IMG/VR virus record: IMGVR_UViG_3300047457_001149
Coordinates: 26,358 to 90,357 of that record
Length of the DNA: 64,000 nucleotides
DNA from: a virus
Strand: one strand, 5' to 3'
The notes under the pieces are model-generated. The model was given only the letters and a program-made list of their open reading frames with translations. It was not told the DNA's origin and did not search any database. Each line of letters begins with the position of its first letter. Position 1 is the stretch's first letter. This document shows, one piece after another, positions 46,570 to 60,012 of the stretch. A program made the position numbers and the translations under genes.

Positions 46570-48054
46570 GTGTCAGGGCTAAAGACCGAACTCCGACCGC
46601 ACCAGATCCGAGCAATCGAGAAGCTCAAGGCTTCCGGCGGGCTCCTCGCCGCACACGGCTTGGGGTCCGGTAAGACGCTCACGTCCATCGCGGCGGCCGA
46701 CGAGCTCGGCCTGCCGATCGAAGCGATCGTGCCGGCGCCGCTCGTGGCGAACTACCAGAAGGAGCTGGAGAAGCACCTGGAGGAGCCGCCCGAGGACGCG
46801 CGCATTCGCTCGTATCAGAAGGTTACGCGGAACCCGGACATCCGGCGGGACGCGCTCGCCGTGCTCGACGAGGCGCACCGCATCCGCAACGTCGGCACCT
46901 CCGTCGAGCGGGAGGTCGCTCGGCGGGCGGCCGAGGCGAAGGCGCGCCTCCTGCTCACCGGCACGCCGGTGTTCAACAACCCGGCCGACCTCGCTCCGCT
47001 CCTCAACACGGCGGCGGGCAGAACTGTGCTGCCCAATGACCCCCGCGCGTTCAACGAGCACTTTGTCGGCGAGCGAGAGATCAAGCCGGGGTTCATCGCG
47101 AGGCTGCGCGGCGTTCAGTCGTCCAAGGTTCCCTATCTCAAGAACCGCAAGGAGTTGATTGAAGCCGCGCGCGGCTACGTCGACGTCTACCAAGGCGGCG
47201 GCGAAGGCTTCCCAGATCGGATCGACGAGCACCACGAGGTGGTCATGTCGCCGATGCAGCGGGAGATCTACCGCTTCCACGAGGGCAAGATCCCGTGGGT
47301 GGTCGCCTACAAGATGCGGCACAACCTGCCGCTCAACAAGAGCGAGAGCAGCAACCTGAACAAGTTTCAGGCAGGGCTCCGGCAAGTGTCGAACACGCCG
47401 AGGCCGTACATCGCGGGCATGACCGACGAGCAAGAGGAGAAGCACTCTCCCAAGCTTCGCAAGATGGTCGACCACCTGTCCGAGATGCGGAACAACGACC
47501 CGAACCATCGCGGGGTCGTCTACTCGAACTACCTCGAAGGCGGGCTCTTGCCGATGTCGCGGATGCTTCAGAAGAAGAACATCCCGCATGCGGTGTTTCA
47601 CGGCGGCCTCTCCAAGCTGGAGAAGGCGCAGCTCGTCAAGGACTACAACAGCGGGAAGACGCCGGTCTTGCTCGTGTCGTCTTCCGGAGCTGAGGGCCTG
47701 GACTTGAAGGGGACGAAGTCGATCCAGCTGGCCGAGCCGCACTGGAACAACTCAAAGATCGATCAGGTGATCGGGCGGGGGATCCGCTACCGGAGCCACG
47801 ACCACTTGCCCGAGGAAGAGCGGAAGGTGCGCGTGATGCGCTACTACTCCGTTCATCCCAAGCCCGGGCTCTTCGGAGACCGCGAAGAGGCCATCGAGCG
47901 GTACATGCAAAACATGTCCGACATGAAGAGCGGGATCGGCGGCGAGGTGATGCAGGCGCTGCAAGAGGCGAGCGACTACGGCCCGCTGCAGAAGACGGCG
48001 GCGAAGTACGGCCTGTCAGTCGCGATCCTCGCGAAGGCCTTCCCCCTCCGGTAG
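46570..48054 (+). CDS. SNF2-family helicase/ATPase
   Basis: LRPHQ, HGLGSGKT, LDEAH, LLTGTP, GAEGLDLKG, QVIGRGIR. Confidence 0.92.
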   Translation: MSGLKTELRPHQIRAIEKLKASGGLLAAHGLGSGKTLTSIAAADELGLPIEAIVPAPLVANYQKELEKHLEEPPEDARIRSYQKVTRNPDIRRDALAVLDEAHRIRNVGTSVEREVARRAAEAKARLLLTGTPVFNNPADLAPLLNTAAGRTVLPNDPRAFNEHFVGEREIKPGFIARLRGVQSSKVPYLKNRKELIEAARGYVDVYQGGGEGFPDRIDEHHEVVMSPMQREIYRFHEGKIPWVVAYKMRHNLPLNKSESSNLNKFQAGLRQVSNTPRPYIAGMTDEQEEKHSPKLRKMVDHLSEMRNNDPNHRGVVYSNYLEGGLLPMSRMLQKKNIPHAVFHGGLSKLEKAQLVKDYNSGKTPVLLVSSSGAEGLDLKGTKSIQLAEPHWNNSKIDQVIGRGIRYRSHDHLPEEERKVRVMRYYSVHPKPGLFGDREEAIERYMQNMSDMKSGIGGEVMQALQEASDYGPLQKTAAKYGLSVAILAKAFPLR

Positions 48055-48315
48055 CTTCCCGCGCTCCATCAGCAGCGCGAGCAGGTACTTGATCTTCGCG
48101 CGCTGCGCGCTGATCGCGTCTCGATAGGGCGCCGAGAGGTCCTTGACGATCGCCTTGGCGCCGGCGAGCTTCTCGTCCGCGGCCTTCTCCGTCTCGACCT
48201 GGTGGATGTTGGCCTCACACTGCACGAGCTCTCCGCGCACGTCTTCGTCAGAGTAGGTGGCGACGTCTTCGGCGTAGCCCGGCGGAAGCTTCTCCAGCAG
48301 CTTGATCATGTCCAT
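48016..48315 (-). CDS. Hypothetical coiled-coil protein
   Basis: 99 aa; AAGGA RBS; 3' overlap with SNF2 gene. Confidence 0.65.
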   Translation of the reverse strand: MDMIKLLEKLPPGYAEDVATYSDEDVRGELVQCEANIHQVETEKAADEKLAGAKAIVKDLSAPYRDAISAQRAKIKYLLALLMERGKLPEGEGLREDRD

Positions 48316-48338
48316 GATGAACCAGTCCTTTACGTCGT

Positions 48339-48740
48339 TCAGTTGAGCCCAAGGCGACCAAGCGTAGAGATCTCGTCGTCATCGTCGGTCGGGATCATCA
48401 GCGTGTCGGTCGGGGCGTCGACGTAGTTCTTGACGAAGTGGGTGTCGTTGATTCGATAGTCCTTGGCGGGCTCGATCGCCGCAATTATCGAATAGAGGCG
48501 CCGGAGGTGGTTGTCGATGCTCACGAAGAGGGCGTTCACCATCGTCATGTTGTCACAATCGTCGAGGCGTCCGCTTTTGTGCGTCTTCTTGTGACGCTCG
48601 GCGTACGCCTTGAGTTCGTCACGCTTCATGAGCACACGCTCCTTCTGTTCGCGGAGCACCTCTAGCAACTCATTACCTGGGATCGTGAGCTTCATCATTA
48701 CCTCGGCGGGTAAGCTACCAGAGCTTTTGTGGGCTGTCAC
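48339..48740 (-). CDS. Hypothetical protein
   Basis: 133 aa. Confidence 0.55.
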   Translation of the reverse strand: MTAHKSSGSLPAEVMMKLTIPGNELLEVLREQKERVLMKRDELKAYAERHKKTHKSGRLDDCDNMTMVNALFVSIDNHLRRLYSIIAAIEPAKDYRINDTHFVKNYVDAPTDTLMIPTDDDDEISTLGRLGLN

Positions 48741-49018
48741 GCCAAAGTGACGGGCACGGTCTCGGCGGCGCGGATCTCTCGGCTGAGCTGGAGCGTGTCG
48801 CGCTTCAAGCGACGGAGCAGCCGGCGGACGTGCTTGGCCTCCCGCAAGGAGCGCTGCGCGGTGCCGGACGGAAAGGTGAAGCGGGCGTAGACCGAGGTCT
48901 CGTAGAGGTCGTTCAAGGCGAGGAGCTGCGCAAGCCGCTCGACGGCGTTGCTGTCTTTCCGGACGGCCTTGATCTCTTTCGCGAGGCTGACTCCAGTGAG
49001 CTTCATGGGGCGCAGCAT
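48737..49018 (-). CDS. Hypothetical protein
   Basis: 93 aa, GTGA-coupled to next gene. Confidence 0.55.
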   Translation of the reverse strand: MLRPMKLTGVSLAKEIKAVRKDSNAVERLAQLLALNDLYETSVYARFTFPSGTAQRSLREAKHVRRLLRRLKRDTLQLSREIRAAETVPVTLA

Positions 49019-49021
49019 ACC

Positions 49022-49049
49022 TTGACAGGGAATCTATGAGTAGTAAGCT
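49022..49049 (+). promoter_or_regulatory. Sigma70-type promoter candidate
   Basis: TTGACA-N16-TAAGCT at the head of the long plus-strand accessory array. Confidence 0.55.
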
Positions 49050-49075
49050 CTCTTTCGGGAGCCCCTTCTACCCAT

Positions 49076-49128
49076 GAGCGCCCCGCCAGTCCGGCTTCAG
49101 GCACCGGGCTGGCGGGGCGCTCGCTTTT
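49076..49128 (+). terminator. 19-bp hairpin followed by GCTTTT (attenuator or small-RNA end)
   Basis: GAGCGCCCCGCCAGTCCGG ... CCGGGCTGGCGGGGCGCTC. Confidence 0.55.
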
Positions 49129-49138
49129 GGAGACTGCG

Positions 49139-49570
49139 ATGTCCATGAACTTCGACGATCTCATTCAAGCCTACCGGGGCGTGCTCCGGGAGAAATACGA
49201 CAAGCTGGACCGCGCGCTGGAGGCCTTCCGCGTGGAGTTTCCCGGCGTCGTCAGCGCTGCCGGGTTGCCGATGCCGTCGGTGGTGCCGCGCGCCGGCTCC
49301 GGCAGCGCCAGCGACATTGTCACCGTGGCGTGGGTGCAAGACTCGGCGCAGCCGGGAGCAATCGCCCGCGTCCGGATCGACTGGACCGTCAGCATCTCCG
49401 CGTTTCACTTTTCGGTTCGCGACCCCAGGGACCCGCGGGCGCCTCAGTTCGACGAGGCCGCCAGCATGAACTTCAAAGTCCCGCAGTGGTTCATCGACCG
49501 AGCGCAGCAGCTCATGTCCGACAAGGCGCTTCCCTACGACCGCTGGGAAGCAAAGATCTACACGTACTAG
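49139..49570 (+). CDS. Hypothetical protein
   Basis: GGAG RBS; MSMNFDDL. Confidence 0.6.
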   Translation: MSMNFDDLIQAYRGVLREKYDKLDRALEAFRVEFPGVVSAAGLPMPSVVPRAGSGSASDIVTVAWVQDSAQPGAIARVRIDWTVSISAFHFSVRDPRDPRAPQFDEAASMNFKVPQWFIDRAQQLMSDKALPYDRWEAKIYTY

Positions 49571-49577
49571 GAGGCAG

Positions 49578-50105
49578 ATGAAGTCCTACGCCACTCCGAG
49601 CGAGGCGTGGCGCCAGTGGTCGCGGGCAGACGCCCGCCGACTGAAGGCGTCGATGTATCAGCTCGCGGACGGCCGTTACGCCGTTTACGTCGTCAACTCC
49701 AACCTGATTCCGGCCGGGGCTCGACGAATGAAGCCCCAGCCGCCGTACCCGGTGGCGGACCCACGGGGAGAAACGAAAGAGGCCTTGGGTAAGGTGGAGG
49801 CCCGCCACGCGGGCATCGTCCGACACGCTTGCCGGGTGGCCGTGCGCCTGGCGAAGCAGAAGCTCACGGTTCACACGCGCGAGATTCGCGACGCGCTCGT
49901 CGCTCAGGGCTTGCTCGACCCGGAGGCTGGTCCGGAGCACTGGCTTGGCGCGGCGGTCAACAAACTGGCGAAGGAGGGCATCCTCGAGAAGTCAGGGCAC
50001 ACGTACAAGTACACGGACGCTTCGCGAGGGATTCACGAGCGAACCGTAACGATCTGGCAGCTGAAAGAGAACGCAGACACGACAAGGTACGAGGAGGAAG
50101 CATGA
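49578..50105 (+). CDS. Hypothetical protein, possible winged helix
   Basis: 175 aa; AGGAGG RBS; WLGAAVNKLAKEGILEKSG. Confidence 0.65.
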   Translation: MKSYATPSEAWRQWSRADARRLKASMYQLADGRYAVYVVNSNLIPAGARRMKPQPPYPVADPRGETKEALGKVEARHAGIVRHACRVAVRLAKQKLTVHTREIRDALVAQGLLDPEAGPEHWLGAAVNKLAKEGILEKSGHTYKYTDASRGIHERTVTIWQLKENADTTRYEEEA

Positions 50106-50749
50106 AGATGTTCGAGGTGACGGTGCCGGTCCACGGCACCATGATGGTGCTGGTCGAGGCGGAGAACGAAGAGGAGGCGAAGGAGAAGACGCTTCGCGGC
50201 GAGATCGCCGACGAAGACGGCGCCTTTCAGTACGGGGGCATCGACGAGAACGGCGAGTGGGCCTTCGAGGAGGCCAAGGCTCTGCCGGAGCGGGTGGAGG
50301 CGATCAAGGTCGATCTCACGTGGTCGCTCTGGTCGCTGTACAAGGACTACTGGGAAGAGCAGGCGCCGGGGGTGTGGGACAAGATCGAGGGGTTGGAGGT
50401 CGGCAAGTCGATTGAGATCGAGACGGCGCCCCGCAAAGAGATTCGCTACGGGGGTGTTGAGATCAGTCGGACGGAGACGGGGTGGCAGGCCACGGGGCAG
50501 TTCTTCGCCGTGTGGGACGAGGCGGAGGAGCTGGCCGAAACGGTCGGGGTTGAAGAAGACCGGATCGATGAGGTGCGAAAGGTCCTGCCCGTGACGTGGG
50601 AGGGGCCGGGGGTGGACGTGGACATCGAGGTCGAGGCTCCTACACTGGAGGAGCTGATGCGGCTTATCGACAAGAGGGAGGACGTATTACTGGAAGAAGA
50701 AAAGGAAGCGTGGACCAAGTTTGAAAGGCATTTTAAAGATGAACCCTGA
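50102..50749 (+). CDS. Acidic hypothetical protein
   Basis: ATGA-coupled; VEAENEEEAKEK motif. Confidence 0.65.
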   Translation: MKMFEVTVPVHGTMMVLVEAENEEEAKEKTLRGEIADEDGAFQYGGIDENGEWAFEEAKALPERVEAIKVDLTWSLWSLYKDYWEEQAPGVWDKIEGLEVGKSIEIETAPRKEIRYGGVEISRTETGWQATGQFFAVWDEAEELAETVGVEEDRIDEVRKVLPVTWEGPGVDVDIEVEAPTLEELMRLIDKREDVLLEEEKEAWTKFERHFKDEP

Positions 50750-51161
50750 ACACGTAGTCGCTGCGATCCTGTCGTTGTTTCCTTACATGAGCGGCAACAA
50801 CCGCGCGTGCGTGGAGCACCGGCGATCAGAGATCGCAGCGCAGCTTACCGAGACGGCGGACGCTGGTGTCCCCTCAGAGATCATGGCGGCGGTCGCATTC
50901 GTCGAGACGCACCTCGGGTGCGATCGCGGAGAAGGGGGCGGCTGGGGCGCGCCCATCGACGGGCAGCACCGTCACACGGCGGGGACGCACATGCACGCCG
51001 CGCGCGTGCTCATTCGCGGGCTGGAGCGTTGCGGGGACTGGGACGGATCGATCCGTCGCTTCCGCACGGGGCTCTGTCATCCGACCACGGTCGGCACTAG
51101 CTACCTGCGGCGCGTGAACCTGCTCATCCGTCGGATCGAGCTTCGCGCAGCGGGTCAGTAA
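50739..51161 (+). CDS. Small lytic transglycosylase (SLT)-like protein
   Basis: IMAAVAFVET (catalytic Glu position), AARVL, GDWDGSIRRFRTG, SYLRRV. Confidence 0.5.
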   Translation: MNPEHVVAAILSLFPYMSGNNRACVEHRRSEIAAQLTETADAGVPSEIMAAVAFVETHLGCDRGEGGGWGAPIDGQHRHTAGTHMHAARVLIRGLERCGDWDGSIRRFRTGLCHPTTVGTSYLRRVNLLIRRIELRAAGQ

Positions 51162-51211
51162 ATTCGCGAGTTTGCAGGTAGAAGATGCGCCAGCCACATG
51201 GTGTGGCCGGC
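51158..51211 (+). promoter_or_regulatory. Putative phage promoter GTAAA-N9-TTGCaGGTAgAAG with downstream hairpin
   Basis: Identical spacing to the 1958 copy; GCCAGCCACA-TGG-TGTGGCCGGC hairpin follows. Confidence 0.6.
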
Positions 51212-51219
51212 AATCAATC

Positions 51220-51272
51220 AACGGGCGCCAGGGCTTCGGCCTTGGCGCCCGTTGGCGTTTACGGAGAAAAAC
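51220..51272 (+). promoter_or_regulatory. cUUCGg 15-bp leader hairpin + GGCGTT + RBS, copy 2
   Basis: AACGGGCGCCAGGGC-TTCG-GCCTTGGCGCCCGTT. Confidence 0.65.
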
Positions 51273-51839
51273 ATGCGAGCAGAACACGTGTTTCAGATGG
51301 AGCAGAATGGCAAGCGGCTCGACGTCTACGTCGACCAGTGGCCGGACAATCCCCGCGAAAACGGGGACAACCTCGGCCAGCTCGTCTGCTGGCACCGGCG
51401 CTACGAGCTCGGCTCGAAGGAGGAGGTGAAGGCTGCGAGGGCCTTCGACCCGTCTAACTACGGCGGGTGGGCCGATCTGGAGGCCGCGATTGAGCGGGAG
51501 TTCAAACCGGTGGTAATCCTGCCGGTCTACATGCTCGATCACTCGGGCATCGCGCTCAGTACGTCGAGCTTCCACGACCGGTGGGATTCCGGTCAGGTCG
51601 GTTTCATTTTCGCCACGCGAGAAAGCGTGACGAAGTGGTTCAACAAGAAACGAATCACCAAGGACCTCCGCGAGAAGGTGGAGGCGCAGCTCCGCTCGGA
51701 GGTCGATCAGTACGGGAAGTACGTCAACGGCGACGTGTACGCCGCCGTCGTGACGGACCTCGTCAGCGGGGAGGAGGTGGACTCGCTGTGCGGGATCTAC
51801 TGCGACAACGTGCGCGAGATCGCAAACGATCTGCTGTGA
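51273..51839 (+). CDS. Conserved phage accessory protein
   Basis: NPRENGDNLG...HRRYELG...LPVYMLDHSG...WDSGQVGFIF. Confidence 0.75.
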   Translation: MRAEHVFQMEQNGKRLDVYVDQWPDNPRENGDNLGQLVCWHRRYELGSKEEVKAARAFDPSNYGGWADLEAAIEREFKPVVILPVYMLDHSGIALSTSSFHDRWDSGQVGFIFATRESVTKWFNKKRITKDLREKVEAQLRSEVDQYGKYVNGDVYAAVVTDLVSGEEVDSLCGIYCDNVREIANDLL

Positions 51840-52072
51840 AGAAGATCTACGCGATCGTCGACCGCGACGGGGTGCAGATCTGGCCTTTCCGCTACGGCGG
51901 CGTGAGGGGCTACGAAGACGCCGAAGAGATCGCTCGGGAGCTGCGACGGACTAGGCCGGACGCAGAGGTCGAAGAGTTCACGAAGAAGAAAGAGGAGGAC
52001 GAGTGGCTCGAATTCTCAAGGCCGATGGGACGATCAGCGAACTCAAGGGCGAGGACCCGAAGGGGCGGCTGA
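51836..52072 (+). CDS. Small hypothetical protein
   Basis: GTGA-coupled; overlaps next gene. Confidence 0.45.
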   Translation: MKKIYAIVDRDGVQIWPFRYGGVRGYEDAEEIARELRRTRPDAEVEEFTKKKEEDEWLEFSRPMGRSANSRARTRRGG

Positions 52073-52281
52073 CCCTCGAACAGATGCAGCAGGCGGTGGG
52101 CGGGTACGTCGAGGTGATCCGGCTTCCGCTCGACAGGCTGCAGATGCTCGTCGACGAGGAGGGCGGCTGGAAAGACCTCCCTGTCAACGAGACGGCGACG
52201 CTTCTGTATCAGAGCAACACGGGAGCCGGAAGGGTCATCAAGGGCGACGTGGTCCTGTGTGACTACCGGTCGCTTCGATAG
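52003..52281 (+). CDS. DUF3846-like protein
   Basis: LEQMQQAVGGYVE...VDEEG...LPVNETAT...IKGDVV. Confidence 0.75.
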   Translation: MARILKADGTISELKGEDPKGRLTLEQMQQAVGGYVEVIRLPLDRLQMLVDEEGGWKDLPVNETATLLYQSNTGAGRVIKGDVVLCDYRSLR

Positions 52282-52290
52282 GAGGAAGAG

Positions 52291-52710
52291 ATGAGCGAAA
52301 TGGTCTACCTGGTGACGGCCGACGCCTACGAGTACAACGACGAGTACTGGAGCTGGACGGACGGAGTCCGGTTTGAAAATAAGGCCCGGACCGACTTGGC
52401 CCAGGCTGAGGCGCACGCGCTCCTGATCAACATGGCGCACGCCCGTGAGGTGGTTACCTCCTGTCACGAATGGACCTACGGGGAAGGGGTGTGGCATCTG
52501 GTCGAAAACTGCGCGGACGCCGAAGAACTCTACCGGCGCGTGTTTCGCAAAGAGCCGGGCGATGACTTCAAAAAAGAGCTGGAAGCTCTCTCGGAGCTTT
52601 CCGATGGTCTGCCCGAAGGGGAAGGGTTCACGGACGAAGACATCCGGTGGTTCGTGGAGAACGTCTCCACGTGCCGGCGCGCCCGTGTCGAAGCGCTGGA
52701 AGTGCTGTGA
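52291..52710 (+). CDS. Hypothetical protein
   Basis: 139 aa; AGGAGG RBS; YEYNDEY. Confidence 0.7.
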   Translation: MSEMVYLVTADAYEYNDEYWSWTDGVRFENKARTDLAQAEAHALLINMAHAREVVTSCHEWTYGEGVWHLVENCADAEELYRRVFRKEPGDDFKKELEALSELSDGLPEGEGFTDEDIRWFVENVSTCRRARVEALEVL

Positions 52711-53066
52711 ATCCGCTCACGCACGCCAAGAACAGCGTGAAGCGCCACGGCGGATCGGTGGACGACTATCTGCCCATCCATCACTGGATGGATCAGACGA
52801 AGCTCCACGTGGCGGATCTCCGACACCGCGTGGTGCTGCACAACTCGTTCGGAGTGGGGCTGTGTGAGAGCGTGTTCGGGTTCTACCTCACGAACTCGGA
52901 CGGCAAGAAGTTCTCTGTGAGGAAGGTAGCCGAAGAGCACGTGATCGAGGACATGGGGTTCATCCCGAGCCTGGATCGCGCGCTGGCGCATACGCCGATT
53001 ACGCAGGCGGAGGCGCCGAGGCTGAGGAAGGTGATCGTGAAAGAGGAAGGGGAAGACCATGCCTAA
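52707..53066 (+). CDS. DUF6915-like protein
   Basis: HAKNSVKRHGGSVDDYLPIHHWMD...HRVVLHNSFG...EEHVIEDMGFIP. Confidence 0.75.
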   Translation: MNPLTHAKNSVKRHGGSVDDYLPIHHWMDQTKLHVADLRHRVVLHNSFGVGLCESVFGFYLTNSDGKKFSVRKVAEEHVIEDMGFIPSLDRALAHTPITQAEAPRLRKVIVKEEGEDHA

Positions 53067-53667
53067 CTGGTGCGACAACGATCTATACATATACGGTAAG
53101 TCTCGGGTCGAGATCGCCGACGCCATCGCTGGAAGCGAAGGCGTGATCGACTTCCAGAAGATCGTCCCCATGCCGGCGGCGCTGTGGGAAATTCCGTCAG
53201 GCACCATGACGGCGGACGCCGAGGTGCTGCTCGGCTGGAGGGACGCCGAGGTCATGCTGGACTGGGAGTGGGTCAAGGGAGAGGGGATCACGAGCGTCAA
53301 AGATCTCAAGATTTACCTCGTAAAGACCCACCCCGATCTTCCGGAGCTCGCTGAGAAGATGAAGGCGCTCAAGGCGGAGCTGGGGTATGCGGACTGGTAC
53401 GAATGGGCCTGCGCCAAGTGGGGCACCAAATGGAACGTCGACGGCGGCGTGCGAGACGATCAGCGGACTCGTATCCGCCTGACGTTCTTGACGGCGGGGT
53501 CACCCCCGTGGCCGATCGTCGACGCGCTCAGCGAGAAGTACCCCGAGACGAAGTTCTCGCTCCGCTACTACGAGTGCGGCATAGGCTTCAAGGGGTGGTA
53601 CGCCCGCAAAGGCGCGAAGGTGCTGGGGGACGTGCACGAGATGTATCGGGGGCGGCGTGGCGGCTGA
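53059..53667 (+). CDS. DUF1281/YubB ferredoxin-like protein
   Basis: MPNWCDN, DFQKIVPMP, WYEWACAKWGTKWN, FLTAGSPP. Confidence 0.8.
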   Translation: MPNWCDNDLYIYGKSRVEIADAIAGSEGVIDFQKIVPMPAALWEIPSGTMTADAEVLLGWRDAEVMLDWEWVKGEGITSVKDLKIYLVKTHPDLPELAEKMKALKAELGYADWYEWACAKWGTKWNVDGGVRDDQRTRIRLTFLTAGSPPWPIVDALSEKYPETKFSLRYYECGIGFKGWYARKGAKVLGDVHEMYRGRRGG

Positions 53668-53839
53668 GGCGCTTCTCCGGAAGCTTCGCAACGAGTACTC
53701 GGAGACGCGCGACGGCGACTGGGGCGAGTTCGTCCAGTGGGCGTGCGGCTACGACGTAAAGAAGGAACTGAGGGCGTGGGGAACGCCGGAGGAGGAGATC
53801 GAACGATGGGAATCCGAAGTGATGTCTTTCTCGCCGTGA
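53657..53839 (+). CDS. Small hypothetical protein
   Basis: 60 aa acidic, overlaps neighbours. Confidence 0.45.
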   Translation: MAAEALLRKLRNEYSETRDGDWGEFVQWACGYDVKKELRAWGTPEEEIERWESEVMSFSP

Positions 53840-54144
53840 AGGCGTCCATCCAGGACGAGTTCAAAGCGAAGTACGAAGAGTGGCTCAAAGATAACTTCGC
53901 GGCGGAAATGTTTCAGCGGCCCGAAGGCGTGGCCTTCTACATGACCGACGTGAACTGGTACTCCGACAAGATCGAGGAGATGTACCTGTGGCTCGTCCGT
54001 AAAGGCCAGCGGGAATTCATCATCGTCACGGCGTGCCACGACTACCCAGAGTCGACGGAGAGCGACGCCGGGCACTGGGAGGACAACCCCTGGAACGCTG
54101 AGAGGGTGATTTCCGTCAGCATCGAGTTCGACAAGGAGGAGTAA
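53806..54144 (+). CDS. Hypothetical protein
   Basis: MGIRSDV...VNWY; GGAGGAG RBS. Confidence 0.65.
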   Translation: MGIRSDVFLAVKASIQDEFKAKYEEWLKDNFAAEMFQRPEGVAFYMTDVNWYSDKIEEMYLWLVRKGQREFIIVTACHDYPESTESDAGHWEDNPWNAERVISVSIEFDKEE

Positions 54145-54710
54145 TGGACGAAAAAACGAGAGAGATTCTGCAGCGGGTGCACGCCGCGCTGCTCGACGCT
54201 GCCGGCGGCGTGCCGGCGGAGTTCTGGGACAAGGGAGGGACGGGCCACGACGTGGCGAACGAGCTGATGGAGGTCATCGCGGCGTCAAAGCCGAGGCGGC
54301 TCCCCGGAGGTGGCTCGACGAACAACGTCGACGCCTACACGACGGCGTGGCAGGAGTTCGTCGAATCGATCACCTCGGTGCTGGGGTGGCGGCTCGCTAG
54401 CTACGACCCCGGCTTCGCCTTCGAGACGCCCAGCGGTGAGCGGGTGTATCTCAACGAGGAGAGCGCGGGGCAGCTCGCGAAGGCGCTCGACCGGGTGCCG
54501 GTGGAGCAGGCGAAGGTCGAAAAGGAAAGGAGGCGCTGGGTGGTCAACTTCGACATTCGCGTCCCGATCCTCGTGGAGATCATCGCGAAGGACGAGGACA
54601 CGGCGGTCGAGCTCGTGATGGATCGCGAACCGGAGGAGTGGCTCGAAGACGCCAAGATCGAGAACGCAGAGATCCTGCCGGAGTGCATCACGGTGACTCC
54701 GGGCGAGTAG
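54144..54710 (+). CDS. Hypothetical protein
   Basis: 188 aa, TAATG-coupled. Confidence 0.65.
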   Translation: MDEKTREILQRVHAALLDAAGGVPAEFWDKGGTGHDVANELMEVIAASKPRRLPGGGSTNNVDAYTTAWQEFVESITSVLGWRLASYDPGFAFETPSGERVYLNEESAGQLAKALDRVPVEQAKVEKERRRWVVNFDIRVPILVEIIAKDEDTAVELVMDREPEEWLEDAKIENAEILPECITVTPGE

Positions 54711-54728
54711 GTCGAGAGAAGGAGAAAC

Positions 54729-55538
54729 ATGGACGACATCAAGCAGCTGCTGACGCTCCCGGATAACTGCTTCGTATCCCCCGACCATCCGGCGGTGAAA
54801 GACCCCGAGCACTGGTGCCTGGGGCCGGTACTCCTGACGCGCGACTCGGACCTCGTCGCCGAGGTCAACTTCGACGCGCTGCAGAAGGAGCTGAAGGAGA
54901 AGGGGTTTCTCGACGATCAGGACGAGGGAGACTACGGGTTCTACCGGCTCAATCACTGGGCCGTCGGCTGGGTCGAGCACCTGAGCTTCCGGGTGCTCGA
55001 CGAGAAGGGCGAGCCGACGGCCATCTACAAGTTCCTGAAGGAGTGGGAGAAGAAGCTCGACGACTACCCGCTGGCAGACGAGGAGGAGCTTTCACGGCGT
55101 GAATACGACGCCGCGATCGAGTGGATCCAGTGCGAGGGCATCCGCAGCTGCAAGGGCGGCGTGCCGACGGACTGGATGGAGCGAGTCTTCACCTGGCTCT
55201 GGGAGCACGAGCAGGGGGAGATGGAGAATCACTCGGGGCACGGCGCGACCCCGTCAGAAGCGGCGATTCGGAGAGCGCTTGCGGCTCTCGAATTTCTGGA
55301 GGTGAGCGTGGAAGAAGAGATCGAAGCGATCATGGCGAAGAAGTTTCCCGGTTGCCCGGTGGACTACTTCGCCGAGGTGACGGACGACCACTCGGAAGAT
55401 TTCGCGCGCGTCGAGGCGGATCTCCCGGAAGGTAAAGAGTTTTTCCTTATCGTGCGGGGCACCTTCGCCGACGAGGACGCGGCCTTCGCGGCGCTGCGGG
55501 ACAAGCTGGTGGAGGAGTTCAAGCATGAGCATGCCTGA
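54729..55538 (+). CDS. Conserved phage accessory protein
   Basis: TRDSDL, HWAVGWVEHL, LDDYPLADEE. Confidence 0.75.
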   Translation: MDDIKQLLTLPDNCFVSPDHPAVKDPEHWCLGPVLLTRDSDLVAEVNFDALQKELKEKGFLDDQDEGDYGFYRLNHWAVGWVEHLSFRVLDEKGEPTAIYKFLKEWEKKLDDYPLADEEELSRREYDAAIEWIQCEGIRSCKGGVPTDWMERVFTWLWEHEQGEMENHSGHGATPSEAAIRRALAALEFLEVSVEEEIEAIMAKKFPGCPVDYFAEVTDDHSEDFARVEADLPEGKEFFLIVRGTFADEDAAFAALRDKLVEEFKHEHA

Positions 55539-55866
55539 AGACACGTTCAAGAAGCGCGAGGAAGCCGTCAAGGTCTTCTGGGAGTGCCTGCAAGAGTGGC
55601 ACGCTGAGGCGCTCGTGAACTACCGCTACGTCGTGAACGAGGCCACGGGCCTCCTCGCGACGGGGGACGGCGAGGGGCCGGAGGACATGACCGTCCTGCC
55701 GGTCCCCAACGCGTCCATCTGCGAGGCGATCCAGGATCCGGGAGAGAAGGAGCGCGCGCTCGCGCGGCCCGAGCCCGGCATGTTCCGCCTCTTCGTCACG
55801 CGGAAGAACCGGCTTTCGTGGGCTGACTTCCCGATCGCGGCTCTCTCGGGCAACCGCCTCAACTGA
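55525..55866 (+). CDS. Hypothetical protein
   Basis: 113 aa; GGAGG RBS. Confidence 0.6.
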   Translation: MSMPEDTFKKREEAVKVFWECLQEWHAEALVNYRYVVNEATGLLATGDGEGPEDMTVLPVPNASICEAIQDPGEKERALARPEPGMFRLFVTRKNRLSWADFPIAALSGNRLN

Positions 55867-55874
55867 AGGGCCTC

Positions 55875-55917
55875 GGGCGCGCAGGGGACTCCACATCCCC
55901 TGCGCGCCCATTCTTTC
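55875..55917 (+). terminator. Terminator-like hairpin
   Basis: GGGCGCGCAGGGGA...TCCCCTGCGCGCCC then ATTCTTTC. Confidence 0.55.
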
Positions 55918-55920
55918 ACT

Positions 55921-56241
55921 ATGACCCCTCGACTCTACCGCGTCTTCGTTCCGAGCCGTGTGCTGGTACTCGCCTTCGACGAGGAGGCGGCCGCGCAGTT
56001 CGTGCTTGAGGAGCAAGTGGACAACTTGATCATGGAGGAGATGAGTGTCGTGAAGCTCACAGAGGAGAACATCCTGCCGAAGGAGCGCGAAGTGCGGCCT
56101 TACTTCTCAGGTGAGGTAAAGGAGCGCATCATTCGCGCGGCGTCGAACTGGCTGCTCATCATCAAGGCTGAAGAAGACGAAGAACGTCGACAACAAGAAG
56201 ACTTCGCACGCAGGCAGCTGAAGCTGCCGGGCGTCGAGTGA
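55921..56241 (+). CDS. Hypothetical protein
   Basis: 106 aa ending RQLKLPGVE. Confidence 0.65.
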   Translation: MTPRLYRVFVPSRVLVLAFDEEAAAQFVLEEQVDNLIMEEMSVVKLTEENILPKEREVRPYFSGEVKERIIRAASNWLLIIKAEEDEERRQQEDFARRQLKLPGVE

Positions 56242-56681
56242 CCCACAACTAAGCAGAAGAAGATCAGGAGAAGACCATGCTACGGCTCCTCCGAAGCCGT
56301 GCAGGAGGCGTGATGTCGGCCCCAAAACTGATCCGAGGCGTCATCAAAAAGTGGGCCATGGCCGACTACGGCTACGCCGGCCGCGGCAACGGCTACGGCT
56401 ACAGCGACGTCTACAGCTTCGGCGACGGTGACGGCTACGGCGACGCCTACGGCGATGGCTATGGCGACGGCTGCGGCGACGCCTACGGTGATGCCTGCGG
56501 CGACGGCTATGGCGACGGCGACGGCGACGGCCACGGCGACGGCTTCGGCTACGGCTGCGGCGAAGGTCGCGGCGACGGCAGCGGCACGTCGACAACAAAA
56601 AGACTTCGCACGCAGGCAGCTGAAGCTGCCGGGCGTCGAGTGACCCACAACGAGTCAGAAAAAGACCAGGAGAAGACCATG
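56184..56681 (+). repeat. 96-bp direct repeat (56184-56279 and 56586-56681) flanking Gly-rich unit 1
   Basis: ACGTCGACAACAA.AAGACTTCGCACGCAGGCAGCTGAAGCTGCCGGGCGTCGAGTGACCCACAAC...CAGGAGAAGACCATG in both. Confidence 0.95.
56313..56678 (+). CDS. Gly-rich peptide unit 1 (no stop; in frame with DUF6948-like gene to 57026)
   Basis: MSAPKLIRGVIKKWAMADYGY then (G-X)n core; AGGAGG RBS. Confidence 0.65.
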
Positions 56682-57026
56682 TCCATGACCACGACCAAGA
56701 AGACCACGACCAAGAAGCCCACGACCAAGAAGACCACGACCAAGAAGACCACCCCCGAGCGCCCCGTTCTCGTCACCACCGAGCACCGCGGCGTTTTCTT
56801 CGGCTACGCACAGAACACCGACGGCGACACCATCACGCTGCGCGGAGGGCGTCTTTGCATCTACTGGAGCCGCGACGTTCGCGGTTTCATGGGACTCGCG
56901 GCGAACGGTCCCACGGCGAGTTGCCGCATCGGGCCTGCCGCGGACATCACGCTCCGCAAGGTCACGGCGGTCGTCGAGGTGACTGAAGCCGCGGTGATGG
57001 CGTGGGAGGCGGCGCCGTGGGGCTGA
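56679..57026 (+). CDS. DUF6948-like protein (possible Sm-like fold) with N-terminal TTTKK repeats
   Basis: VLVTTEHRGVFFGY...ITLRGGRLCIYW...GLAANGP; 15-bp ACCACGACCAAGAAG x4; AGGAG RBS. Confidence 0.72.
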   Translation: MSMTTTKKTTTKKPTTKKTTTKKTTPERPVLVTTEHRGVFFGYAQNTDGDTITLRGGRLCIYWSRDVRGFMGLAANGPTASCRIGPAADITLRKVTAVVEVTEAAVMAWEAAPWG

Positions 57027-57244
57027 TCCGAGGCGTCGTTGAGGCGTGGGCTGCCGCCGAAGACGGCTGCGGCGACGGCTTCGGCTACGGCAACGGCGAA
57101 GGCTACGGCTACGGCAACGGCTTCGGCTACGGCGGCGGCTTCGGCTGCGGCGACGGCTTCGGCGGAGGCGGCGGCTACGGCTACGGCTTCGGCGGAGGCG
57201 GCGGCTACGGCGTCGGTTACTCCGAAGACGTGCAGGAAGCGTGA
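57017..57244 (+). CDS. Gly-rich peptide unit 2
   Basis: GTG start after GGAGG; LIRGVVEAWAAAEDG-(GX)n-GYSEDVQEA. Confidence 0.7.
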   Translation: MGLIRGVVEAWAAAEDGCGDGFGYGNGEGYGYGNGFGYGGGFGCGDGFGGGGGYGYGFGGGGGYGVGYSEDVQEA

Positions 57245-57471
57245 TGTCGAACCCGAAACTAATCCGAGGCGTCGCTGAGACGTGGGCCATGTCCGACTAC
57301 GGCTACGGCTACGGCTACGGCGACGGCTACGGCTACGGCTACGGCGACGGCTTCGGCTACGGCTACGGCTACGGCTACGGCGACGGCGAAGGCTACGGCT
57401 ACGGCGAAGGCTACGGCTACGGCGACGGCGACGGCGCCGGTTACTCCGAAGACGTGCAGGCGGCGCGATGA
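57244..57471 (+). CDS. Gly-rich peptide unit 3
   Basis: TGATG-coupled; MSNPKLIRGVAETWAMSDYG-(GX)n-GYSEDVQAAR. Confidence 0.75.
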   Translation: MSNPKLIRGVAETWAMSDYGYGYGYGDGYGYGYGDGFGYGYGYGYGDGEGYGYGEGYGYGDGDGAGYSEDVQAAR

Positions 57472-57698
57472 CGAGCCCGAAACTGATCCGAGGAGTCGTT
57501 GAGCCGTGGGCCATGGCCGACTACGGCTACGGCTACGGCGGCTACGGCTACGGCTACGACTGCGGCGTGGGCTACGGCTGCGGCGTGGGCTACGGCTTCG
57601 GCGACGGCGACGGCGACGGCGACGGCCACGGCTACGGCCGCAGCTACCTCTCCGGCGACGGCGGCGGTTACTCCGAAGACGTGCAGGCGGCGCGATGA
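57468..57698 (+). CDS. Gly-rich peptide unit 4
   Basis: ATGA-coupled; MTSPKLIRGVVEPWAMADYG-(GX)n-GYSEDVQAAR. Confidence 0.75.
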   Translation: MTSPKLIRGVVEPWAMADYGYGYGGYGYGYDCGVGYGCGVGYGFGDGDGDGDGHGYGRSYLSGDGGGYSEDVQAAR

Positions 57699-58027
57699 CG
57701 AGCCCGAAACTAATCCGAGGCGTCGTCGAAGACTGGGCTGCCGCCGAAGACGGCTTTGGCGACGGCTTTGGCGACGTCTTCGGCTACGGCTTTGGCTACG
57801 GCGACGGCTTCGGCTACGGCTGCGTCAACGGCGACGGCTACGGCTTCGGCTGCGTAAACGGCGACGGCTACGGCTACGGCTACGGCTTCGGCGACGGCGA
57901 CGGCTTCGGCGACAGCGACGGCTACGGCGACGGCTACGGCTACGGCGGCGGCGACGCCTACGGCGGCGGCTACGGCAACGGCGACGGCTACGGTGACGGA
58001 TACTCCGAAGACGTGAAGGAGGCGTGA
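57695..58027 (+). CDS. Gly-rich peptide unit 5
   Basis: ATGA-coupled; MTSPKLIRGVVEDWAAAEDG-(GX)n-GYSEDVKEA. Confidence 0.75.
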   Translation: MTSPKLIRGVVEDWAAAEDGFGDGFGDVFGYGFGYGDGFGYGCVNGDGYGFGCVNGDGYGYGYGFGDGDGFGDSDGYGDGYGYGGGDAYGGGYGNGDGYGDGYSEDVKEA

Positions 58028-58785
58028 TGCCGTCTCTCTGGTCAAAGAGCCGCCCTCGGCACCTCAAGATCATCAGCGAGGTCGACCAGGAGCCCCTACC
58101 TGATCGGCTTCATATCACCGCGAACTCGAAGACCGGCGTGTCTATCGACTTCGCGGTGCACCTCACGTGCTCACCTACCCAGGTGTGCATGGGTTACGGC
58201 GAGGAGTCAGCGGGGTGCTACGCGCTCCAAGGCTTCATGTCGTTCCCTAACGCCGTAAAGCACCACGTGCGAAATCAACGGCTGATGGAGGACCTCGTGG
58301 CGCGAAAGCCGCAAGAGGTGCTCCAGGTTGCGACGAAGCTCTGGGCAGACTTGCCCCGGGGCGTCGATTGGATCCGCTGGAACGGCGCGGGCGACTTGTC
58401 GCTCGGCGCCGTTCGGCTGATCAACGCGTTCTCAGCGAGGTACCCGGAGATCATCCTCTGGATCACCACGCGCCTTCCGGATCTCGCCTGCGAGATCAAA
58501 GACCGAAAGTCCATCCGGCTTCTCCTCTCGCTCGATCGCTCGACGCCGCCGAAGGTGGCCGAGAGAATCTGGGCGGTGCCAGAGAGGTTCCGTAAGGGCG
58601 TGGCGCGAGTCTCGTACACGCGCGTCTCTGAGGCCGACGTGCCGCCGAAAGGCGTGCACGTCGTCTTCAACAAGCACACATCAGGCAGATACAACGACTG
58701 GCCGCACGTGCGGGTGTGCCCCGCGTCGCTCTCGACCGGAGAGCACGAGGGTGCGTGCGACCCGTGCAGGAAGTGTTTCAAATGA
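58027..58785 (+). CDS. GP88-family / radical-SAM-like Fe-S protein
   Basis: NSKTG, CSPTQVC-x9-CYA, IRWNGAGDL, WITTR, LSLD, terminal CPAS...CDPCRKCF; TGATG-coupled to unit 5. Confidence 0.7.
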   Translation: MPSLWSKSRPRHLKIISEVDQEPLPDRLHITANSKTGVSIDFAVHLTCSPTQVCMGYGEESAGCYALQGFMSFPNAVKHHVRNQRLMEDLVARKPQEVLQVATKLWADLPRGVDWIRWNGAGDLSLGAVRLINAFSARYPEIILWITTRLPDLACEIKDRKSIRLLLSLDRSTPPKVAERIWAVPERFRKGVARVSYTRVSEADVPPKGVHVVFNKHTSGRYNDWPHVRVCPASLSTGEHEGACDPCRKCFK

Positions 58786-59054
58786 AAGACTTCGAACAAG
58801 AGGTGACGGCAGTCCTTTGGGGCGTCGGCGAGATGCTCAAGAAGAAGAACGCGGCGTACGGAGACTCGGCGCTCTCGCCCGTGCGGATCTTCTCGAAGGC
58901 GGATCCCGTCGAGCAGATCCTCGTGCGGATCGACGACAAGCTCTCGCGACTGGCGCGGGGGATGGCGGCGGGAGAGGACGTCGAGGACGACCTCATGGGG
59001 TATCTGGTGCTACTCAAGATCGCGAAGATGAGGAGGAAGCGGGAAGAGAGGTGA
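58782..59054 (+). CDS. DUF1599 / nucleotide-modification-associated (Nmad1-like) protein
   Basis: LKKKNAAYGDS...ILVRIDDKLSRL...DLMGYLVL. Confidence 0.75.
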   Translation: MKDFEQEVTAVLWGVGEMLKKKNAAYGDSALSPVRIFSKADPVEQILVRIDDKLSRLARGMAAGEDVEDDLMGYLVLLKIAKMRRKREER

Positions 59055-59094
59055 ATTCGTAGATCGGGCCCTGAGCGTCTCGCTCAGGGCCTCC

Positions 59095-59169
59095 GCTGAC
59101 GTAGCTCAACGGTAGAGCTCCGGCTTTGTAATCCGGGGGTTGAGGGTTCGATTCCCTTCGTCAGCTCCA
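59095..59169 (+). tRNA. tRNA-Thr (UGU)
   Basis: GCTGACG/CGTCAGC acceptor, GCTC/GAGC D arm, loop TT-TGT-AA, GGTTCGATTCC T arm, encoded CCA; 11-bp hairpin just upstream (59067-59091). Confidence 0.92.
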
Positions 59170-59184
59170 TAGGAAGGAGGGCCT

Positions 59185-60012
59185 ATGCCACGGGTGACGT
59201 GGACCAAAGAAGAGGATGATGTTCTCAGGCGGGCGTATCGAAAGATCGTCGGGCGGACGACGCAGGAGAGCGTTTGGCGAAAGATCTTGGAGCAGCTGCC
59301 GCGCCGTTCGAAGGCGTCGTGCCTTGTGCGCGCGAGCAAGCTCAGGATCGCTAACAAGGCGAGGTGGTCAGAGGCAGAGGACAAGATCATCAGGGATTGG
59401 TTCGCCGACGGCTCTGTTCGCGGCATAAAGAAGCTCCTGCCCCGGCGGAGCTGGGAGGCGATCAAAGGCCGCGCCAAGCGGCTCGGGGTCAATTCGCTTC
59501 GCTGGCAGGGCTACGTGTCGGTGACGGAGGCGGCGGCGCGCCTGAACTTCTCGTTGTCTTACTTCACGAACATCTTGAAGGCGATGGGCGTGGCGCTGCG
59601 AAATCGCGCAAACGAAGGAGGTAAGAGGGCACGCTACCGCCATCATGTGGTCGAGTGGGAAGAGGCCGAGGACGCGGTCAAGCGTTGGTTGGCGCTGGAC
59701 ACGACGCGCGCGGCGGCGGAGCGGTGGGGACTTAAACGGGACCGAGTGCAGCGCTGGGTCCGGGAGGCGCGTGGGTATCAAGAGAAGCCGGGGGTGGCGC
59801 TGAGGCTGCCTGCGGCAGAGTTCGACAAGATCATCAAGGAACGACTCGAAAAAGGAAAGAGGGCGAAAGATGGCGAACAACTATCAGCTGTGGAGCGAGA
59901 GCGTCGAGAACCTTTCGGACGAGGAGATCGAGTGGATCAAGGACACACTTACCTGGTCTCCTACGGAGGAGGAGGAGGAGGACCCGAACTTCGAGTGTCC
60001 CGCGTGGTATGA
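59185..60012 (+). CDS. Myb/SANT-like repeat and HTH DNA-binding protein
   Basis: WTKEEDDVLRRAY...LPRRSKASC and WSEAEDKIIRDWF...LPRRSWEAI; SVTEAAARL. Confidence 0.7.
   Translation: MPRVTWTKEEDDVLRRAYRKIVGRTTQESVWRKILEQLPRRSKASCLVRASKLRIANKARWSEAEDKIIRDWFADGSVRGIKKLLPRRSWEAIKGRAKRLGVNSLRWQGYVSVTEAAARLNFSLSYFTNILKAMGVALRNRANEGGKRARYRHHVVEWEEAEDAVKRWLALDTTRAAAERWGLKRDRVQRWVREARGYQEKPGVALRLPAAEFDKIIKERLEKGKRAKDGEQLSAVERERREPFGRGDRVDQGHTYLVSYGGGGGGPELRVSRVV

Follow-up and report, generated by a model that had tools for sequence, protein, structure and literature searches.

The question raised by this locus is why a phage should carry five consecutive small genes for peptides in which glycine alternates with another residue, (Gly-X)n, and with which of their neighbours these peptides work. 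The array lies in a 64,000-nucleotide stretch (hereafter the window) of the IMG/VR virus record IMGVR_UViG_3300047457_001149, positions 26,358 to 90,357; the record comprises 90,357 bases, has a GC content of 63% and is about 52% complete. The phage carrying the array is a freshwater phage. An earlier note on this DNA had proposed that the five units are either precursors of ribosomally synthesised and post-translationally modified peptides (RiPPs), matured by the radical S-adenosylmethionine (SAM)-like product of the adjoining GP88 gene, or low-complexity peptides that dock onto the Sm-like product of a DUF6948 gene, or diversified decoys against host defence. Our analysis indicates that the array is very probably an amplified form of a widespread two-gene module, consisting of DUF6948 and a (Gly-X)n gene, to which GP88 is incidental.

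DUF6948 and its Gly-X partner form a widespread phage module

The surroundings of DUF6948 were surveyed in 80 viral loci, of which 73 contained sufficient downstream DNA to be judged; a second set of 16 loci overlaps with these. A Gly-X partner was called when a tract began at most 400 nt past the DUF6948 stop codon on the same strand. Such a tract was present in 68 of the 73 judgeable loci, and at least two of the five misses are explicable: in L069 the tract is located slightly farther away, while in L019 a variant in GGY phase was missed by the pattern. The partner lies in the -1 frame relative to DUF6948 in 65 of the 68 loci, and its start codon mostly precedes the last base of the DUF6948 stop codon by 9-27 nt. 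Ahead of the tract most partners share an N-terminal motif of the form (L/I/V)(L/I)RGx(L/I/V)PxW (two hydrophobic residues, R-G, any residue, a hydrophobic residue, P or any residue, any residue, W), as in LIRGELPEW, VLRGTIPDW and LIRGVLPNW, and its Gly and Trp are nearly invariant in the alignment. The tract behind it is acidic and consists of Gly in strict alternation with Tyr, Asp, Phe, Cys or Ser, encoded by GGC-NNC hexamers.

The window displays all features of this module: a match to Pfam family PF22253 (DUF6948), an adjoining Gly-X open reading frame (ORF), GGC-NNC hexamers and the N-terminal motif. Since the motif is family-wide, the leader of the array is not specific to the array, and unit 2, which directly follows DUF6948, is the canonical partner, units 1 and 3-5 being tandem paralogs. 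DUF6948 is thus welded to a Gly-X gene in more than 90% of the phage loci examined, and gene callers mostly miss or mis-frame the partner. The earlier note had cautioned that single Gly-X ORFs beside DUF6948 occur in many phages and that only the multi-copy array is unusual, which agrees with the survey, as a second Gly-X gene was found in only one lineage (L064/L067/L068) among the 80 loci. With five paralogs and a conserved in-frame fusion (see below), the window represents the most elaborate form of the module in the searches made.

In 35 of the 68 relatives the tract continues in-frame into a C-terminal domain of at least 60 amino acids, and in some others the Gly-X protein carries an N-terminal domain instead. 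A conserved domain of about 110 amino acids, with the motifs FWKS-x-KDG-x-P-x-NGG and LHATL-x-P-x-KW-x-GERLW, follows the tract in L006, L010, L012, L016, L017, L019 and L064. For the domains before or after the tract, Pfam and PHROGs returned nothing informative and the ESM Atlas only a sub-threshold hit to DUF7666 (0.81).

Architecture and translation of the five units

The five units were found in the sequence at the positions and in the frame that had been described, with a shared leader and differing cores, except that two boundaries need amendment (Table 1). Unit 2 had been taken to start at the LIRGV of its leader, whereas judging from its position GTG 57002 is the most likely start: it is homologous to the start codons of the relatives, which precede the last base of the DUF6948 stop codon (57024-57026 in the window) by 24-27 nt. 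The alternative start is at 57017. Unit 1, in turn, lacks a stop codon of its own and reads in-frame into DUF6948.

Table 1. Features of the amplified DUF6948/Gly-X locus and its borders (positions within the window).
Feature	Position	Strand	Description
Backbone 106-aa gene	55921..56241	+	Left border of the inserted cassette; last 58 nt inside the duplicated junction
Junction copy 1	56184..56279	+	3' end of the 106-aa gene, spacer with AGGAGA ribosome-binding site, ATG 56277; direct repeat D6
249-aa open frame	56277..57026	+	12 residues, unit 1 leader, Gly-X core, linker, Thr/Lys tail, DUF6948 domain
Remnant tail	56284..56313	+	What is left of a lost unit (GSSEAVQEA-stop); provides unit 1 with its AGGAGG site and TGATG overlap; repeat family D4
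Unit 1	56313..56585	+	Leader MSAPKLIRGVIKKWA; 74-residue Gly-X core; no tail, no stop
Junction copy 2	56586..56681	+	Read as a linker in the frame of unit 1; also contains the DUF6948 start (ribosome-binding site, ATG 56679); direct repeat D6
DUF6948	56679..57026	+	115 aa, pI 9.9; Lys/Thr-rich N-terminal tail followed by a predicted Sm/LSm-like barrel
Unit 2	57002/57017..57244	+	Canonical Gly-X partner; leader LIRGVVEAWA, tail GYSEDVQEA; -1 frame, start inside the 3' end of DUF6948
Unit 3	57244..57471	+	75 aa; Tyr-rich core; tail ..QAAR; TGATG upstream, ATGA downstream
Unit 4	57468..57698	+	76 aa
Unit 5	57695..58027	+	110 aa, net charge -17; tail GYSEDVKEA; TGATG overlap with GP88
GP88	58027..58785	+	Radical-SAM-like backbone gene, right border of the cassette; Pfam GP88 E 1.5e-9

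The leader reads M-(S/T)-x-PKLIRGV-x3-WA in units 1 and 3-5, with P-K-L-I-R-G-V and W-A unchanged, and LIRGV-x3-W is present in five of the five units. Among the nine invariant codon columns of the leader, four show synonymous changes only (CCA/CCG, CTG/CTA, GGC/GGA and GCC/GCT) and none shows a replacement, which supports translation in the Gly-X frame and not in the Arg-rich or Ala/Thr-rich alternatives of the ORF list. As had been pointed out, this list masks units 3-5 behind Arg-rich extensions. The two subtypes that had been distinguished, WAAAEDG...EA (units 2 and 5) and WAM(A/S)DYG (units 1, 3 and 4, of which 3 and 4 end in AAR), were likewise recovered, as were the remnant tail and the GYSEDV(Q/K) terminus of units 2-5.

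Chaining by start/stop overlaps is present at every junction, TGATG being used between the remnant tail and unit 1, units 2 and 3, and unit 5 and GP88, and ATGA between units 3 and 4 and units 4 and 5. The tail sequence doubles as the start region of the following gene, since it includes the Shine-Dalgarno motif (AGGAGG or AGGAAG) and the stop/start overlap; part of the tail's conservation is due to this double role. The tail GYSEDVQEA is confined to the lineage of the window. The islands formed by a tail and the next leader are 75-88% identical to each other, so that the copies are not very recent.

Within the cores, Gly alternates mostly with Tyr, Asp, Phe and Cys, in proportions that differ between units: Tyr is prominent in unit 3, Gly and Phe in unit 2, and Asp in units 1 and 5. 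All units are acidic (pI 4.1-4.2, net charge -6 to -17) and none carries a signal peptide. The array therefore offers a natural series of tails differing in length and composition. A pattern search with the leader DNA gave no match in viral contigs beyond the window's own record. A protein homologue search with residues 1-40 of unit 4 also found none; gene callers likely record the units as longer Arg-rich ORFs, outside the length range searched.

A conserved fusion of unit 1 with DUF6948

The segment preceding unit 1 is duplicated ahead of DUF6948 as a 96-nt direct repeat (D6), the copies of which are 94% identical. Upstream of ATG 56313 and in-frame with it lies ATG 56277, which has its own AGGAGA ribosome-binding site. 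Because the second copy of the junction is open in the frame of unit 1, ATG 56277 opens a frame of 249 amino acids that runs through unit 1 into DUF6948. This fused ORF is also known from other assemblies (P0023 and P0024, with 94% and 76% identity, respectively, over the DUF6948 part), the core of unit 1 being nearly unchanged in both; the Gly-X::DUF6948 frame is open in P0022, P0023 and P0024.

A second lineage (L064/L067/L068) contains an extra copy of leader (METITLLQGEQPSW, the same leader) and Gly-X tract before DUF6948, which again reads in-frame into DUF6948. In L064 (1949-2590), and also in L067 and L068, this duplicated segment exists besides the usual partner downstream. Another N-terminal Gly-X::DUF6948 fusion is found in P0069. 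Such a conserved in-frame fusion constitutes "Rosetta stone" evidence that DUF6948 and the Gly-X proteins work together. Separately, phrog_18306 (242 positions) is matched in its first half by a Gly-X protein and in its second half by the DUF6948 protein of phage NK-7, a pattern suggesting that in some cultured phages the two have been called as a single fused or merged gene.

The DUF6948 protein

The window protein matches PF22253 with an E-value of 4.3e-23 (81.7 bits against a cut-off of 27). The family comprises 1,020 clusters at 50% identity, taken at E-values up to 1e-3. The net charge of the protein is +8 and most of it resides in the Lys/Thr tail, the basic (T-T-T-K-K)-like sequence of which is encoded by five 15-nt repeats (56689-56763, repeat D5). 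P0023 and P0024 present differing repeat numbers and variants in this tail, indicating that it also changes by slippage.

A search of the Protein Data Bank (PDB) with the DUF6948 sequence returned nothing. In the AlphaFold2 model (mean predicted local distance difference test score, pLDDT, 84) the protein has the bent five-stranded barrel of the Sm/LSm type, and ranks 1-36 of its structural matches are almost all Sm/LSm-type chains, with Z-scores from 7.3 to 4.0. The earlier description of DUF6948 as Sm-like is thereby supported at the level of the predicted fold.

How the module may work

Copies of the partner gene may have arisen through unequal recombination or slippage in the hexamer tracts. 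Recombination within the tracts would leave each conserved tail-plus-leader island between two fast-changing cores, and one copy would have been placed before DUF6948 so as to read in-frame into it. The resulting acidic, aromatic low-complexity chains would act with the basic Sm-like protein, to which they would be tethered non-covalently by the N-terminal motif or, where the genes are fused, by a covalent link. Hfq autoregulates its binding of RNA through an acidic C-terminal domain, and LSm4 promotes P-body assembly through its low-complexity tail. Like these disordered tails, the Gly-X chains could tune the nucleic-acid binding of the barrel or drive multivalent assembly early in infection, and paralogs of differing core length and composition would supply a mixed population of tails.

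Of the three proposals in the earlier note, the one that pairs low-complexity peptides with an Sm-like DUF6948 protein has fared best, on evidence that is genomic: the pairing in 68 of 73 loci, the start overlap, the motif, fusions in two lineages and the predicted fold. Moreover, the charges of the two proteins are complementary (pI 4.1-4.2 for the units against pI 9.9 for DUF6948), and both the synonymous leader changes and the continuation of the tract into a C-terminal domain in 35 of the 68 relatives point to selection at the protein level.

Several observations weigh against this reading. Fusions are rare, being found in two of the 150 best DUF6948 representatives, among which they were counted. 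The Sm match concerns a predicted fold at moderate Z-scores (at most 7.3), and the Pfam LSM family gives no match. The N-terminal motif is missing in more distant modules, such as that of Eggerthella phage PMBT5, where the Gly-X protein starts with MANYGYG, which makes a universal docking peptide doubtful. In addition, the near-absolute use of C-ending codons in the tracts at any GC content (see below) is not explained by a purely protein-level role. A complex prediction for residues 26-115 of DUF6948 and the first 45 residues of the Gly-X protein, both supplied as alignments, scored 0.24 (mark 0.32), which counts neither for nor against this reading. Taken together, we give about an even chance to the overall explanation of an amplified DUF6948 module whose acidic tails work with the Sm-like protein. 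Its functional part, that the acidic chains act on or with DUF6948, is put forward by analogy and tentatively, as a possibility with the odds against it.

Integrity of the assembly

The earlier note had allowed for the array being an assembly artefact. This is not the case, as independent sequences agree with the window. A 2.3-kb contig from another metagenome (L022), with a GP88 that is 97% identical, repeats the gene order of the window: the end of DUF6948 is followed by four units and these by GP88. Logan contigs from three runs of separate studies bridge the checked junctions without differences: X1 and X3 cross junction copy 1, the remnant tail and unit 1; X1 and X4 cross the unit 1 core into junction copy 2; X1 and X3 cross from DUF6948 through unit 2 into unit 3; and X3 crosses from unit 3 into unit 4. 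The whole array is spanned by no single Logan contig, because short-read contigs break inside the cores.

In all four runs the cores (56385-56578, 57064-57160, 57258-57451 and 57840-58033) reach a summed contig depth 10- to 400-fold that of the flanks, indicating that (GGC-NAC)n tracts of other organisms or phages are very numerous in these water metagenomes. Run X15, although labelled as RNA, is probably DNA; it covers little besides repeat-like contigs of other organisms.

Core turnover and the possibility of decoys

Compared with L022, the window shows 94-98% identity in the flanks of the array, but identity falls to 65-76% in the cores of units 2, 3 and 5, whose lengths differ by +54, +39 and -6 nt, respectively. 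The core of unit 4 is 97% identical in nucleotides between the two, and its variants within one sample, as seen in Logan contigs, differ by +6 and +18 nt. The 15-residue motif GYGFGCVNGDGYGYG is found in unit 5 of the window and in the counterpart of unit 2 in L022, which indicates exchange between units. This pattern fits slippage and unequal recombination in hexamer tracts, processes that would also explain the multiplication of the tail-plus-leader island.

Such very fast change between near-identical phages is also what might be expected if the chains were decoys, as the earlier note had considered. They would then imitate nucleic acid or a host target so as to tie up an immune or degradative factor of the host, and an arms race would drive the expansion of the array and the turnover of its cores. 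DNA mimics are typically acidic, as are the units, and amplification to five copies and a setting among early or accessory genes (an SNF2-type helicase, Myb-like regulators and many unknowns) would suit this role. However, in-frame hexamer slippage is expected even without selection, and what is conserved in the cores is composition and not sequence. As decoys would, moreover, leave the obligate pairing with DUF6948 unexplained and no host target is known, we regard this explanation as unlikely.

Codon usage and possible selection on the nucleic acid

In the window, 92% of the core codons end in C, compared to 37% in the neighbouring genes, and GGC accounts for 137 of the 146 Gly codons. The same was observed in eight phages (L001, L002, L003, L006, L008, L016, L017 and L019) with a locus GC content ranging from 38 to 64%. 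Their tracts consist to 98-100% of C-ending codons (GGC, NAC, AGC, TGC and TTC), with GGC as 314 of 316 Gly codons and an NAC:NAT ratio of 213:2, whereas C occupies the third codon position in 13-44% of the codons of the adjacent gene. Neutral slippage should spread synonymous variants just as it spreads variants of the X position; something therefore acts on the nucleic acid or on its decoding, and, judging from these codon counts, synonymous drift in Gly-X tracts seems to be forbidden. The pattern, GGC and NNC only from 38 to 64% GC, thus bears on how coding microsatellites are maintained.

The codon bias is an argument for supposing that the selected object is the nucleic acid itself, with (GGC-NNC)n serving as a binding array, a recombination or attachment site or a structured tract, and the peptide being secondary. 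A tract of this kind has indeed been published as a GC-rich DNA repeat and possible attachment site (phiPLPE; PMC3391216). On the other hand, the amino acids of the leader are conserved through synonymous changes, the reading frame is intact in each of the units as well as in 68 relatives, and length variants are multiples of 3 or 6. The in-frame continuation of the tract into folded C-terminal domains in 35 of the 68 relatives, and the free variation of the X positions, unlike that of a strict nucleic-acid motif, point in the same direction, and a purely nucleic-acid role is accordingly considered rather improbable.

Both levels would be combined in a self-contained ribonucleoprotein device in which DUF6948 recognises the (GGC-NNC)n tract in the mRNA of its partner and the acidic Gly-Tyr/Asp chains bind back to DUF6948, yielding a tunable condensate or a feedback loop by which the early RNA or DNA of the phage is organised. 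Recognition of the mRNA tract would explain the C-ending codons at any GC content, and the five-copy array with its fusion would then amount to an upgrade in dosage and valency. We consider this device a long shot.

GP88 is a backbone gene beside an inserted cassette

The earlier note had described GP88 as radical-SAM-like, and the predicted fold bears this out. Its AlphaFold model has a mean pLDDT of 79, with the C-terminal Cys cluster modelled below 50, and can be assigned with fair confidence to a partial, radical-SAM-like (beta/alpha)6 barrel. Radical SAM enzymes make up 28 of the 30 best rows of VIA-align, and the best folds are those of QueE (Z 9.4, root-mean-square deviation 4.0, 184 aligned residues), spore photoproduct lyase (Z 8.5) and viperin (Z 8.4); Foldseek gave weak, mixed TIM-barrel and radical SAM rows only, and a sequence search of the PDB nothing. 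Among the 18 GP88 homologues found, the invariant positions are C48/C54/C64 (CX5CX9C), RWNGAGD and C231/C244/C247/C250 (CX12CX2CX2C). The canonical CX3CX2C motif after strand 1 is not present, CX5CX9C standing in its place. Non-canonical Cys spacings occur in the radical SAM superfamily, so that a cluster in GP88 is still possible.

The gene order of the relatives separates GP88 from the array. In L021 (GP88 56% identical) and in L023, L024 and L025 (59-62%), a homologue of the 106-aa gene, ending in ..QLxLPGVE, is directly followed by GP88 with nothing in between, and in L025, where this was checked, the two genes overlap. The 130-kb record of L021 (G001) contains neither DUF6948 nor a Gly-X repeat. 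Conversely, GP88 was not found within 4-6 kb of DUF6948 in any of the 80 viral loci, nor in the 16 loci of the overlapping set, and a tblastn search with GP88 gave no match among 50,697 phage records, 138 of which carry Gly-X-type repeats; a pattern derived from the single GP88 protein found none in viral contigs. As the 106-aa gene and GP88 are joined directly in the relatives, DUF6948 and the array constitute a cassette inserted between two backbone genes, and GP88 is an incidental neighbour of this cassette and not the partner of the array. A role for GP88 on nucleotides or nucleic acids seems as likely as one on peptides.

The proposal that the five units are RiPP-like precursors, each with a leader, a variable core and a follower modified by GP88, has therefore lost its footing, since linkage of the peptides to GP88, named beforehand as the refuting test, is absent. 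A variable core between constant ends does look like a precursor family, unit 5 and GP88 are translationally coupled through TGATG, GP88 combines a radical-SAM-like barrel with three invariant N-terminal Cys and a four-Cys C-terminal cluster, and repeat proteins matured by radical SAM enzymes do exist (HXS system; PMC13128918). Yet Pfam shows GP88 alone, with no match to a RiPP recognition element (RRE/PqqD) or SPASM domain, no protease, exporter or transporter family was found among the neighbours scanned from 46.5 to 63 kb, many of which match no family, and tail conservation is partly due to the ribosome-binding site of the next gene. The RiPP reading is thus very improbable; that it suggested itself is an accident of the insertion, and a false lead is removed.

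Frameshifting and retroelement-driven diversification as rejected alternatives

Programmed -1 frameshifting at the end of DUF6948, producing a DUF6948-Gly-X fusion as in the tail chaperones G/GT, was also examined: the Gly-X frame is -1 in 65 of 68 loci, it stays open over a median of 79 nt upstream of the DUF6948 stop, and one protein in the databases (P0031) is a fusion of this type. However, the 65 loci share the frame by inheritance and do not count independently. An X-XXY-YYZ heptamer is present in only two of 60 loci, start codons with ribosome-binding sites are found at the junction, the genes do not overlap in Barba10S and PMBT5, and units 1 and 3-5 would be out of reach; frameshifting was rejected as most improbable. 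Rewriting of the cores from a (GGC-AAC)n template by the adenine-specific mutagenesis of a diversity-generating retroelement, suggested by variation that falls mostly in the first two positions of the NNC codon, is close to refuted and was rejected, as there is no PF00078 reverse transcriptase in the 90-kb contig (about 52% complete) or in the complete PMBT5, NK-7 and Barba10S genomes and no second (GGC-NNC)n copy elsewhere in the contig, while core lengths differ between relatives, which such elements do not produce, and the second codon position is mostly A.

Genomic setting

The region around the array (46.5 to 63 kb) was scanned for protein families, and many neighbours match no family at all. 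A long run of small family-less genes is flanked by an SNF2-type helicase (46570-48054) and a Myb/helix-turn-helix regulator (59185-60012), and the region 46570-60012 looks like an early or accessory block. A single tRNA-Thr(TGT) is located at 59095-59169. In the window phage, L023 and L025, GP88 is followed by a gene of about 90 amino acids (58782-59054 in the window, phrog_1485), and farther downstream of GP88 both the window and L021 contain one or more tRNA genes and a gene for a Myb-like regulator.

Comparison with known systems

DUF6948 and a Gly-X gene are found together in other phages, such as Ralstonia phage NK-7, where the partner is annotated as a "fibroin heavy chain-like protein". 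Domain, order, strand, start overlap and hexamers are the same, as is the motif in most of them. The Pectobacterium phages Koroua and Amona are further cultured carriers. Eggerthella phage PMBT5 (gp37/gp38) and the Rheinheimera Barba phages are probable carriers of the module, although the genes upstream of the Gly-X ORF in PMBT5 and Barba10S did not match the DUF6948 profile significantly in hhalign (E 0.02 and 0.12, respectively). The relatives almost always have one partner and about half of them a folded C-terminal domain after the tract, whereas the window has five partners without such a domain, a lineage-specific tail, two subtypes and one copy fused before DUF6948.

In full-text searches of the literature, no paper was found on the DUF6948 domain or on its pairing with Gly-X proteins, and the only published trace found is the GC-rich repeat (KMGCCG)35 of Iodobacter phage phiPLPE, which has been described as a DNA repeat and possible attachment site (PMC3391216, Table 3). 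It is the same kind of hexamer tract (among the blastn matches H9/H10) and was published without an ORF, partner gene or protein.

The characterised system closest to the RiPP proposal is the HXS antiphage system, in which the His-Xaa-Ser repeat protein HxsA is matured by the radical SAM enzymes HxsB and HxsC (PMC13128918). The likeness consists in a gene for a short-period repeat protein beside that of a radical-SAM-type enzyme. The HXS enzymes and their repeat protein travel together, while GP88 and Gly-X genes do not co-occur outside the lineage of the window and a SPASM or RRE match is lacking; the co-occurrence that defines HXS is therefore absent here.

Among eukaryotic low-complexity proteins, the [G/S]Y[G/S] domains of FUS, EWS and TAF15 and the YG domain of PEX13 resemble the Gly-X cores in their richness in Gly and Tyr, in the precedence of composition over order and in their tolerance of length changes. 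The window cores differ in that they keep a strict period of two residues, are strongly acidic, span 50-85 residues and are encoded by a perfect hexamer microsatellite.

Finally, the module can be set beside the Sm, LSm and Hfq proteins with low-complexity tails, such as E. coli Hfq and LSm4. In the window the tail is encoded by a gene of its own unless fused, it repeats Gly-Tyr/Asp with a period of two instead of being Q/N-, RGG- or Asp/Glu-rich, and DUF6948 has no Pfam LSM match. What they share is a small barrel, here predicted, accompanied by a disordered chain of biased composition, and the pairing of an acidic chain with a basic core.

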